In this document: piece after piece, positions 57,780 through 58,550 of the stretch | Position numbering within the stretch: position 1 is the stretch's first letter | Layout of the letters: every line of letters starts with the position of its first letter | IMG/VR virus record: IMGVR_UViG_2537561979_000003 | Reading direction: 5' to 3' (one strand) | Length of the DNA: 64,000 bases | Source: a virus | Taxonomy: Duplodnaviria; Heunggongvirae; Uroviricota; Caudoviricetes | The notes under the pieces: generated by a model | Told to the model about the DNA's origin: nothing | What the model saw: only the letters and a program-made list of their open reading frames with translations | Databases searched by the model: none | Position numbers and translations under genes: made by a program

Positions 57780-58550
57780 GGAAAGAGCATTCTTGGTGGA
57801 CCTGTAGATTGGGATATGAACCCGTTACAGGAGAATGCTCTTACCTGTTACGTGCTCCGTTTCGTGGAGCTAACGGCGGGTGATCGGGCCGCACCAGACT
57901 GGACTTATTTCAGCGTTATGCTCATGCCAGAGAATCAAACTGTGATGGTCGGTGCTGAACTCCGACACAGGGTTGTAGCAAGCCCCGCAAAGCGCGCACT
58001 ACTGTAGTTGCGGCACATCAGCCTGTGCATTCACCACAATGTTGAGAACACTGGTTGTCACGCTGCAACGCAACATTTATTCGTAGATTGGGATATGACC
58101 CCGTTACGCCAGTGTTCTCAACGTTGTAGTGCCGGTTACGGTTCCGGCCAGGCCTCTTCCTCAACGGGGTGTTCTCCATACGGACTACCGTTTATTGGTC
58201 GTTCCTGCGGTTTATGTTGTGAAGCCAGATGCTTATCTTCTGGTTGCTTCAAAGAGCTGCACTTCATCACAACGGTAAGAGCACTCGATGCATTTAAGCC
58301 AAGCCCCATAAGGGAGAATGCCCTTACCTGTTGTGTTGTGATGACCGGTGCTGATCTCCGGCTTGCGGTTATTTCAGACTCTCACGGGCGTTTAATTGCC
58401 GCGCCGAACAGCTCTTTTCCGCAATAGCTGCAATGTCTTTCGCGCATCAGCCTGCGCATTCATCACAACGGTAAGGGTACTTCGTAGGGATTCGAACCCT
58501 CTGCCAAGCTCGGCGATCTCCGACGTCGCAAAATACCCTTACCTGTTGTG
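57780..58550 (-). repeat. array of about four related structured repeat units containing tRNA T-arm-like minihelices
   Basis: Recurrent arms cacaac(a/g)ggtaag(g/a)g and cccttacc(g)ttgtg; T-arm-like GGGTTCGAATCCC (58485-58497) and GGGTTCATATCCC; a further arm copy at 58969-58990. Confidence 0.6.

Follow-up and report, generated by a model that had tools for sequence, protein, structure and literature searches.

Tandem hairpins with tRNA-arm-like tips in the early ban operon of a P1-like phage-plasmid and their relatives in lambdoid prophage leaders

Between the gene for tRNA-Thr and tciA, the tRNA/tci/ban transcription unit of a P1-like phage contains an interval of 927 nucleotides (nt; 57625-58551) that is rich in long inverted repeats, and the question raised by this locus is what such a structured stretch does inside an early operon. 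The interval was analysed in a 64,000-nt stretch (the window) of IMG/VR virus record IMGVR_UViG_2537561979_000003 (Caudoviricetes), where BLAST gives the region an identity of 99.6% with P1-like phage JL22 and, across 91% of the query, of 98.9% with reference P1. An earlier note, made from the sequence alone, had reported about four related repeat units with tRNA-like pieces at 57780-58550. The interval is best explained as tandem copies of a portable RNA leader module, lying on the sense strand and common to P1-like phage-plasmids and lambdoid prophages. As so explained, the module consists of a hairpin of 17-27 base pairs (bp) with a conserved base (CACAAC...GUUGUG) and an exchangeable tip imitating one tRNA arm, namely a T arm in unit U1 and an initiator-type anticodon arm with CAU in units U3 and U4, followed by a domain of ~100-140 nt, both ends of which match the STnc100-like tciA leader and the dicB leader. 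It is further suggested, with a probability of about 0.45, that the stems serve as punctuation of the ribonuclease III (RNase III) type, separating tRNAs from messenger RNA (mRNA) in the early transcript that starts at Pban.

A hairpin array on the sense strand of the ban operon

The minus-strand order of features is dmt, Pban with its C1 operators, a 'dicF-like region', tRNA-Asn, tRNA-Thr, the array interval, tciA, tciB, tciC, tRNA-Ile2 (CAU), and ban, and the array is thus an untranslated part of the C1-controlled early ban operon. The sense strand of this tRNA/tci/ban operon is the minus strand, and the array hairpins lie on that same strand. Repeat finding in the interval returned a direct repeat of 23 nt in four copies, at spacings of 261, 233 and 196 nt, together with inverted repeats 13-23 nt long and 38-54 nt apart. 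The four units built from long inverted repeats that had been described earlier were found again at their positions, on the minus strand and inside the tRNA/tci/ban unit. U1 (58553-58461) is a 23-pair hairpin (-42.7 kcal/mol, z -5.14); U2 (58338-58265) has 21 pairs and shares the stem base, but its tip differs (CCCUUAUGGGG...; -34.5 kcal/mol, z -4.46); U3 (58131-58032; covariance-model extent 58134-58029) combines a 22-pair hairpin with a three-way junction (-49.6 kcal/mol, z -4.98); and U4 (57858-57767) is a hairpin with an inner stem CCUGUA/UACAGG (-37.4 kcal/mol, z -4.53). The range of the earlier note leaves out a fifth unit, U0 (58996-58902, minus strand), a long hairpin 5' of tRNA-Asn built on the same stem base (CACAACAGGUAAGGG / CCUUUCCUGUUGCG; -45.3 kcal/mol, z -5.39). 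The stem base common to all hairpins reads CACAAC(A)GGUAAGRG, with a bulged A, on the 5' side and CYCUUACCGUUGYG on the 3' side, and a common 12-mer occurs in 13 copies in the window against 3.4 expected, five of these copies being inside this locus. At least six different tips are carried on one stem base across P1-like contigs.

The predicted folds of the hairpins are far more stable than those of shuffled sequences. None of 200 shuffles folded as well as any of the five single units (-34.5 to -49.6 kcal/mol, z -4.46 to -5.39), and the full 927-nt interval folds at -350.6 kcal/mol, compared with -295.9 +/- 9.4 in shuffles (z -5.8), with U1 to U4 all recurring in its minimum-energy fold. The structure is also specific to one strand. 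In a seeded hairpin scan, U0 forms 31 pairs, of which 11 are G.U, on the minus strand versus 18 on the plus strand, and the related lambdoid hairpin described below forms 25 pairs, five of them G.U, on one strand only. Because the G.U pairs of the stems turn into A.C mismatches on the other strand, the structure is selected in the sense-strand RNA and not in the DNA. As regards length, an RNase III substrate is expected to have a helix of about two turns (at least 20 bp); U0 to U3 have 21-27 pairs and U4 about 17, with one conserved bulged A, and across members the stems hold 17-27 paired positions with no more than 2-3 bulges or mismatches.

No tRNA was called in 57625-58551 by ARAGORN, by Rfam at gathering thresholds or by Rfam at E-values up to 10, and only single arms are imitated; the earlier remark that no unit folds into a complete cloverleaf is borne out by these searches. 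In the Rfam scan of the window, gathering scores were reached only by true tRNAs, C4 and isrK. Rfam matches of U0 and U3 to miRNA precursors reflect the long hairpin only and were discarded.

The immediate neighbours of the array were assigned as follows. The genes for tRNA-Asn (58630-58705) and tRNA-Thr (58552-58627), both on the minus strand, were called by ARAGORN and by the Rfam tRNA model (74.5 and 72.9 bits for the pair), U1 starting at the CCA end of tRNA-Thr. The first protein gene 3' of the array is tciA (57199-57624, minus strand), identified as an open reading frame (ORF) of the TerB family (Pfam TerB, 28.4 bits) and by the annotation of P1. Just downstream of Pban (59170-59320, minus strand), the P1 'dicF-like region' and E. 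coli K-12 Qin share a segment that lies upstream of mature DicF (GGCGCGGCGGUAAGYAUGGC...GGUUGACCAURCGCYUAAGUGRCAAC). The 3' part of the region differs from Qin and ends in a strong intrinsic terminator (GCCCAUCUUCGGGUGGGC followed by U9, 59199-59180), and the Rfam DicF model gave no match to the P1-type region. The region may thus be a counterpart of DicF in position but with a different seed, and transcription of the ban operon would have to read through the terminator. Elsewhere in the window, the Rfam C4 antisense RNA (75 bits; 30482-30569) lies beside isrK (59 bits) within 30482-30692 on the minus strand; this is the expected, ordinary immI region of P1.

Relatives in the early leaders of lambdoid prophages

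Covariance model R1 was built from an alignment (A2) of 18 lambdoid prophage leaders only, with no P1 sequence in it. On the 64-kb window it detected U4 (34.7 bits, E 8.1e-8) and U3 (26.6 bits, E 2.4e-5), both over model positions 1-100 and on the minus strand, together with a weak stem-only match to U2 (14.6 bits, E 0.12) and nothing further. U0 and U1 are not found by R1 and share the stem base by sequence only. Orthologues of U3 and U4 were recovered by R1 in P1, P7, D6 and Ro157. Within A2, RNAalifold predicted 33 pairs, seven of which have changes on both sides; 99.2% of the cells of the structure are paired, compared with 38-52% when the partners are slid, and the covariation score of 0.189 (0.111 in shuffles) was reached by none of 500 shuffles, subject to the tool's own caveats about relatedness among the aligned sequences.

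Beyond phage genomes, R1 matched 22 species genomes at 93-119 bits on the sense strand versus 24-43 bits on the antisense strand, all but one of them titled as Enterobacterales. The genera include Escherichia, Shigella, Citrobacter, Enterobacter, Kosakonia, Leclercia, Phytobacter, Mixta, Erwinia, Trabulsiella, Buttiauxella, Pseudescherichia, and Pseudocitrobacter, and weaker matches (42-45 bits) were obtained in Yersinia and Pantoea. A 99-bit match at 3328-3451 of locus L151 belongs to a record titled Chryseobacterium sp. 18061, which probably represents contaminating or misassigned enteric prophage DNA. Exact copies of the tip motif ACGGGNTCATAWCCCAATC occur in more than 120 viral contigs and represent 93 distinct contexts. 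Exact-motif matches outside the enteric bacteria were checked at 25 loci: none was a tRNA, and among those put through R1 none matched except the Chryseobacterium-titled record. These matches are attributed to chance, since by our own arithmetic a few tens are expected in 596 Gb.

The position of the family in lambdoid phages is constant. An intrinsic terminator is followed by a 25-bp hairpin with a three-way junction, then by GGAGAAAC and a small hairpin, and then by the ribosome-binding site and start of the first early gene, which is yfdP-like, rdgC-like or yfdR-like; arm 1 of the junction carries CGGGCUCAUAACCC and arm 2 is a variable hairpin. The domain that follows U1 in the window (SD1, see below) likewise has its lambdoid counterparts, which include mEp460 and Stx2 phages, in the stretch that separates the CI-like repressor from the first early-left gene, oriented like the operon, as seen in the context of mEp460 and Stx2a_WGPS2. 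A 391-nt query from the mEp460 leader, which contains the hairpin, matches at least partly 2,799 of 5,426 complete E. coli genomes. E. coli K-12 has yfdP-yfdR in its CPS-53 prophage but the element upstream of yfdP is absent there, so that K-12 data sets on RNase III and transcript ends cannot be used for the family.

Rfam gave no match to the mEp460 leader at E-values up to 1, and the literature searches made found no published description of the hairpin family. U3 and U4 are divergent members of a widespread enterobacterial prophage RNA family that has no Rfam entry. Among the identities offered by the earlier note, an undescribed structured RNA family is the one supported: the array is structured RNA, with R1 matches and compensatory changes.

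Tips, spacer domains and tRNA genes

The tip of U1 combines a D-arm-like hairpin (GCCGAGCUUGGC) with a T-arm look-alike (GGGUUCGAAUCCC; GGGTTCGAATCCC at 58487-58499, minus strand). A T-loop has seven nucleotides (UUCRANN), with U at position 1, A at position 5, and a G-C-rich stem, and the GGG UUCGAAU CCC of U1 has all of these. In the U1-type tips of CMS-2020a and of P1-like contig L019, both with AGAGUUCGACUCUCU, the arm reads AGAG UUCGACU CUCU instead of the GGG/CCC form of P1, so that the T-loop (UUCGAAU or UUCGACU) is kept and its stem compensated. The tip of U4 (GGGTTCATATCCC / GGGUUCAUAUCCC, 57811-57823, minus strand) is flanked by CCTGTA/TACAGG and then by TCCACCA (UCCACCA in RNA), and U3 holds a third copy of the small hairpin, GGGGTCATATCCC at 58090-58102, that had been overlooked before. 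Two perfect T-stem-loop look-alikes had been claimed for the array; both quoted sequences are present and that of U1 is a true T-arm look-alike, whereas that of U4 fits an anticodon loop. The loops of U3 (GUCAUAU), U4 (UUCAUAU), and the lambdoid members (CUCAUAA) do not have the T-loop form; U3 and U4 have U at position 5, and since their loop, NUCAUAU, lacks the A at that position it is not a T-loop. Judged by their sequence, the two tips are better read as anticodon-arm look-alikes with CAU, in the format U33, CAU, A37.

Both tips enclose the segment AC-GGG-NUCAUAU-CCC-AAUC in a short inner stem that covaries between CGUA/UACG, CCUGUA/UACAGG, and CCGGR/YCCGG. In U3, arm 1 of the junction is the look-alike with CAU (CGUA-AC-GGG GUCAUAU CCC-AAUC-UACG) and arm 2 is a hairpin with UUGCAG. 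The lambdoid arm CGGGCUCAUAACCC is identical to 14 nt of the anticodon arm of E. coli initiator tRNA (tRNA-fMet), including its three initiator-type G-C pairs; the arm sequence of tRNA-fMet was confirmed against all 5,426 E. coli genomes. Compared with this initiator arm, in which GGG/CCC closes CUCAUAA, U3 and U4 keep GGG/CCC, U33, CAU, and A37, differ at positions 32 (G or U) and 38 (U), and retain three of the five stem pairs. The tRNA-Ile2 of P1 itself has a different anticodon arm. The acceptor-like stem and CCACCA tail noted earlier are present at U4, but conservation of the tail is limited to those P1-type U4 orthologues that were examined; U3 and every lambdoid member lack it, so that it does not characterise the family.

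Three further possibilities for the tips were tried and set aside. A tRNA relic recognisable by model search was sought, and no partial tRNA match was obtained on any unit (Rfam, E up to 10) or on the mEp460 leader (E up to 1). For pairing in cis of the CUCAUAA loop with downstream start codons, no conserved complement was seen nearby by eye. Leader peptides starting at the GUG or AUG of GUGAAUGC are unlikely, as they do not agree in length (11, 12, 23, and 119 codons) and no ribosome-binding site is present.

Single tRNA-like features in transcripts other than tRNAs have parallels in the thrS operator, the C4 RNA of P1/P7, and the CI RNA of P4, in each of which the feature is used by a tRNA-recognising protein. 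C4, which belongs to this same phage, and CI RNA are substrates of RNase P; unlike them, the array family lacks a conserved CCA-like tail. In architecture, the closest known RNAs are the bacterial Y RNA-like RNAs (YrlA, RF02553), in which a long stem formed by the 5' and 3' ends carries a tRNA-like module with a T arm, and some of which are encoded by phages. No unit was matched by the YrlA model, whose sole match (25.6 bits, gathering score 69) lies on the true tRNA-Asn/Thr pair, and the array units differ from YrlA in carrying one tRNA-like arm per tip and in being embedded in mRNA leaders rather than forming stand-alone genes.

The hairpins alternate with spacer domains. SD1 (58470-58334, minus strand) begins with GUGAUGAAUGCGCAGGCUGAUGCGC and ends with CAGCACCGGUCAUCACAAC, is 96-98% identical by BLAST to the lambdoid pL-leader region, and is absent from reference P1. 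SD3 (58040-57941, minus strand; GUGGUGAAUGCACAGGCUGAUGUGC to CGGAGUUCAGCACCGACCAUCACA) is a paralogue of SD1, as seen from direct repeats D2 and D7 and from alignment A4, and SD4 (57777-57658, minus strand; GGUGAAUGCGGCUAAGCGCACGC to GGGAGGCACCCGGCACCGCA), the 5' leader of tciA, is STnc100-like and homologous to the K-12 dicB leader (alignment A4). SD1, SD3, and the tciA leader each begin with GGUGAAUGC and a small hairpin and end with a hairpin and CAYCRCA(AC), and the stem of the first hairpin is compensated between the copies (GCGCA/UGCGC, GCACA/UGUGC, UCGCA/UGCGA). The tciA leader scores 41.9 bits (E 2.9e-7) with the Rfam STnc100 model (RF02076; gathering score 47) over model positions 31-147 of 206, and it aligns at both ends with the dicB leader of E. 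coli K-12 Qin. SD1 and SD3 gave no STnc100 match and have only both domain ends in common with the tciA leader. Because the ends of the spacer domains match the tciA and dicB leaders, the repeat unit is taken to be a long hairpin plus an STnc100/dicB-leader-like domain. The domain after the hairpin resembles STnc100/PasD and the dicB leader in beginning with GGUGAAUGC and a hairpin and ending with a hairpin and CAYCRCA; it differs from STnc100 in that only the copy next to tciA comes near the 47-bit threshold, and the long hairpins lie outside the matched model positions. STnc100 is related to the prophage Hfq small RNA (sRNA) PasD, and RNAs of this kind lie near Q, TerB, and tRNA genes in lambdoid prophages (preprint 10.64898/2026.05.13.724894).

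The segment between U2 and U3 (58136-58267, minus strand) has a 43-codon sense ORF in the ORF list (MKCSSLKQPEDK..., MKCSSLKQPEDKHLASQHKPQERPINGSPYGEHPVEEEAWPEP), and this stretch is also present in L019; no purine-rich ribosome-binding site was seen just upstream of the ORF, and it had no Pfam or PHROG match. Two side observations concern the leaders themselves. P1 tciA and Qin dicB, both linked to the inhibition of cell division, share one leader type. In the mEp460 leader (2450-2500 of L005) and its equivalents in viral contigs, an intrinsic terminator stands after the spacer domain, with a hairpin that varies and a U-run that is kept and that pairs with the GGAGA following the long hairpin. 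The lambdoid spacer domain with its terminator resembles a stand-alone sRNA of ~190 nt and may correspond to a named prophage sRNA.

The array is closely associated with tRNA genes and changes along with them. Hairpins start 0-2 nt after the CCA of tRNA-Thr in the window, P1, D6, Ro157, CMS-2020a, and L019, and at the same distance after the CCA of tRNA-Ser in D6, P7, Cyrano, CMS-2020a, and L019; in an E. coli prophage, a hairpin homologous to the first hairpin of mEp460 ends exactly at the 5' end of tRNA-Arg, and the Stx2a_WGPS2 version of that first hairpin encloses two T-arm-like pieces. The tRNA set at the locus turns over among contigs L003, L004, L010, L019, L028, and L030, which derive from P1-like phages and related phage-plasmids, comprising Asn-Thr, Asn-Tyr-Thr, Arg(UCU)-Tyr-Thr with Ser(UGA) further downstream, or Asn-Thr-Ser. 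SD1 follows U1 in the window and U3 in L019; in the latter contig, a membrane protein and another ORF take the place of tciABC. Comparison with the trnT-tciA interval of reference P1, as had been proposed, showed the array to be present there, but without SD1 and U2 (a 196-nt difference), as would result if recombination had joined the 3' arms of U1 and U2, which are identical. In Salmonella phage SJ46 (1668-1757 of L008), U3 and U4 form a chimera with a crossover inside the 19-nt tip motif, which has left the arms unable to pair, and R1 gives 15 bits. In Ro157c2YLVW (923-975 of L003), GGGTTCATATCCC, the small hairpin of U4, is exactly deleted. Hairpins, spacer domains, and tRNAs thus behave as interchangeable beads of one transcript, and the array evolves, and varies in copy number, by repeat-mediated recombination. 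In context, the array is perhaps closest to species 1 and 2 (rnaC/rnaD), small stable RNAs encoded within the tRNA cluster of T4, which are structured non-tRNAs whose function is unknown and which are co-transcribed with phage tRNAs; T4 is unrelated to P1.

Processing punctuation and its alternatives

RNase III punctuation is proposed because the stems have about the length known for RNase III substrates, phage early RNAs are punctuated in this way, and DicF is likewise processed. Helices of two turns or more are a standard substrate of RNase III, whose sites in the early RNA of T7 and in the N leader of lambda punctuate early polycistronic RNAs, and DicF is made by processing with RNase III and RNase E. 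Host RNase III would cut the two-turn double-stranded stems, while RNase P and RNase E would handle the tRNAs. With the stems cut, the tRNAs would be free of the mRNA and their 3' ends, otherwise blocked by the stem, would be open to exonucleases, and the tciA and ban mRNAs would acquire defined, stem-protected ends. Dense folding may in addition shield the ~1.7-kb untranslated leader from Rho and from decay, and the excised tips would be small tRNA-arm-like RNAs. Consistent with this proposal, the family in lambdoid phages sits in the untranslated pL leader directly 5' of the first early-left gene, and in P1, as annotated, a dicF-like region heads the same operon. The RNase III sites of T7 and lambda and the processing of Qin DicF are therefore the closest known systems in mechanism: there, too, long hairpins stand between functional units of an early phage transcript and directly 5' of the first gene, and the ban operon is of the same type as the Qin dicB operon in holding a dicF-like region and a dicB-type leader. 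Unlike those sites, the array has tips with conserved tRNA-arm look-alikes and tandem units that abut tRNAs, and its cleavage is deduced by analogy.

Several points weigh against punctuation by RNase III. Its action on the stems is argued from helix length, and the literature searches made turned up no mapping of transcript ends and no results from rnc mutants for P1-like or lambdoid members. Taken alone, SD1 and SD3 fold no better than shuffles (z -1.5 and -0.45). Some relatives tolerate losses, the small hairpin of U4 being gone in Ro157, the arms being non-complementary in SJ46, and P1 having one unit fewer. Knock-down of trnT, plp, upl, tciABC, trnI, and ban by CRISPR interference (CRISPRi) gave no plaque phenotype (PMC10695390), so that any role of the array must be accessory. 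Finally, punctuation leaves the near-invariance of the 19-nt tip motif ACGGGNUCAUAWCCCAAUC unexplained while the stems drift, and for this reason a second, trans-acting role of the tips remains a candidate.

Such a role could be that of a decoy, the processed tips titrating or misdirecting a tRNA-binding factor in trans and thereby protecting early phage development; candidate targets are a VapC-type toxin or an anticodon nuclease cutting tRNA-fMet, TrmA and TruB for the T arm, and MetRS. That the lambdoid tips share 14 nt with the anticodon arm of tRNA-fMet, including the three initiator G-C pairs, that a nearly constant tip motif recurs from genus to genus on covarying stems, and that the U1-type T-loop is kept with a compensated stem would all be accounted for in this way. 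The units also stand among phage tRNA genes of a fast-changing repertoire (Asn/Thr, plus Tyr, or Arg/Tyr/Thr/Ser), and their expression from an early promoter and their dispensability in a laboratory host are usual traits of counter-defence genes. A decoy is nevertheless considered unlikely, given that no co-occurring gene and no partner protein were found, that the tips of P1 depart from the initiator loop at positions 32 (G or U) and 38 (U), that the stem of the mimic is no longer than 3 bp and one arm by itself may not suffice for the enzymes named, and that Ro157 has lost the hairpin. The stronger form of this idea, in which the tips are working mimics (of the T arm in U1, and of the initiator anticodon arm in U3 and U4 as well as in the lambdoid leaders) and provide an early, RNA-only counter-defence shared across prophages of Enterobacterales, is rated as quite unlikely.

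The array could instead be evolutionary debris, that is, scars of tRNA-cassette turnover in which tRNA fragments between recombination-prone palindromes are merely tolerated. The resemblance of the tips to pieces of tRNA, with two T-arm-like pieces in the Stx2a_WGPS2 hairpin, agrees with this, as do the variation in copy number and content among close relatives, with chimeras and deletions, and the lack of an essential role under CRISPRi. Compensatory changes, however, keep the stems paired, the G.U pairs are strand-specific, and the same position, in the leader of the first early gene, is occupied in prophages of more than 20 Enterobacterales species; debris would not be expected to hold both structure and an invariant tip motif over such a range, and this explanation, too, is held to be unlikely. 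The degenerate tRNA relics of the earlier note remain plausible for the tips, but they leave the conserved and covarying long stems unexplained; the RNase P or RNase E processing decoys that it also named would be a further candidate.

A role at the level of transcription, with the modules acting on RNA polymerase or against Rho by put-like antitermination or by shielding of the leader, appears very unlikely. It would suit the placement of the modules in pL-type and Pban leaders 5' of long operons, the lambdoid hairpin directly after an intrinsic terminator, and the strong terminator just downstream of Pban (59199-59180), and the put RNA of HK022, an N-less lambdoid phage, is a precedent for an RNA in an early leader that acts alone, in cis, on early operons (PMC9378689). 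However, put RNAs are ~70 nt long with two short stem-loops, and not helices of 20-27 bp (PMC9378689); they show no likeness in sequence or structure to the array hairpins. BLAST found no similarity between the array and the HK022 pL/putL region, R1 found nothing there, and the HK022 leader has no long hairpin. A better candidate for put is a different element, the pL-proximal leader, which also occurs between trnI and ban. This spacer between tRNA-Ile2 and ban (56574-56850, minus strand) aligns closely over ~190 nt with the promoter-proximal pL leader of mEp460 and also with the leader 5' of the hairpin-tRNA-Arg unit in the E. coli prophage, and its first ~45 nt resemble the HK022 putL region (ACGGCG...CAUGCGUCG..AGCG); it may be a put-like antiterminator RNA just before ban.

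Reference P1 annotates two plus-strand ORFs in the interval, upl (63 amino acids) and plp (125 amino acids), with predicted promoters, so that its description as non-coding is a conclusion of this analysis and not a database annotation. The upl ORF matches two PHROG families, both clusters of unknown function, and neither ORF has a Pfam match. The Plp proteins of P1 and the window have 93 residues in common and then diverge, because of the 196 extra bases in the window, leaving an unconserved C-terminus. Other ORFs, or none, are annotated here in JL22, D6, P7, and SJ46, the upl start codon (ATG) is complementary to the CAU of the U4 loop, a loop that Ro157 has lost, and a consensus scan of 56500-59450 found no sigma-70-like promoter on either strand. 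That the interval codes for protein on the plus strand, with the hairpins incidental, is therefore highly improbable in view of these points, the Cys-rich composition of the ORFs, and the covariation that supports RNA structure on the opposite strand. Both ORFs are probably spurious, and the earlier dismissal of the ORFs in this tract as Cys-rich artefacts is most likely correct, the frames being unconserved and without Pfam match.

Taken as modules that punctuate an early transcript, the hairpins would belong to a known kind of element, the structured processing or leader RNA, with tRNA-arm mimicry as an added feature. A conserved and covarying RNA without an Rfam family is present in the early leaders of temperate enterobacterial phages that have been much studied, and the P1 'genes' upl and plp can be re-read as the antisense shadow of a structured RNA. 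The leader of the P1 ban operon, the dicF-dicB region of Qin, the STnc100/PasD sRNAs, and the lambdoid pL leaders become linked as one set of shuffled RNA modules, and an exact copy of the anticodon arm of initiator tRNA is found outside a tRNA. If the stems are only processing sites, their recognition is a useful annotation; if the tips are decoys, and should this prove true, they would represent a new class of phage counter-defence.

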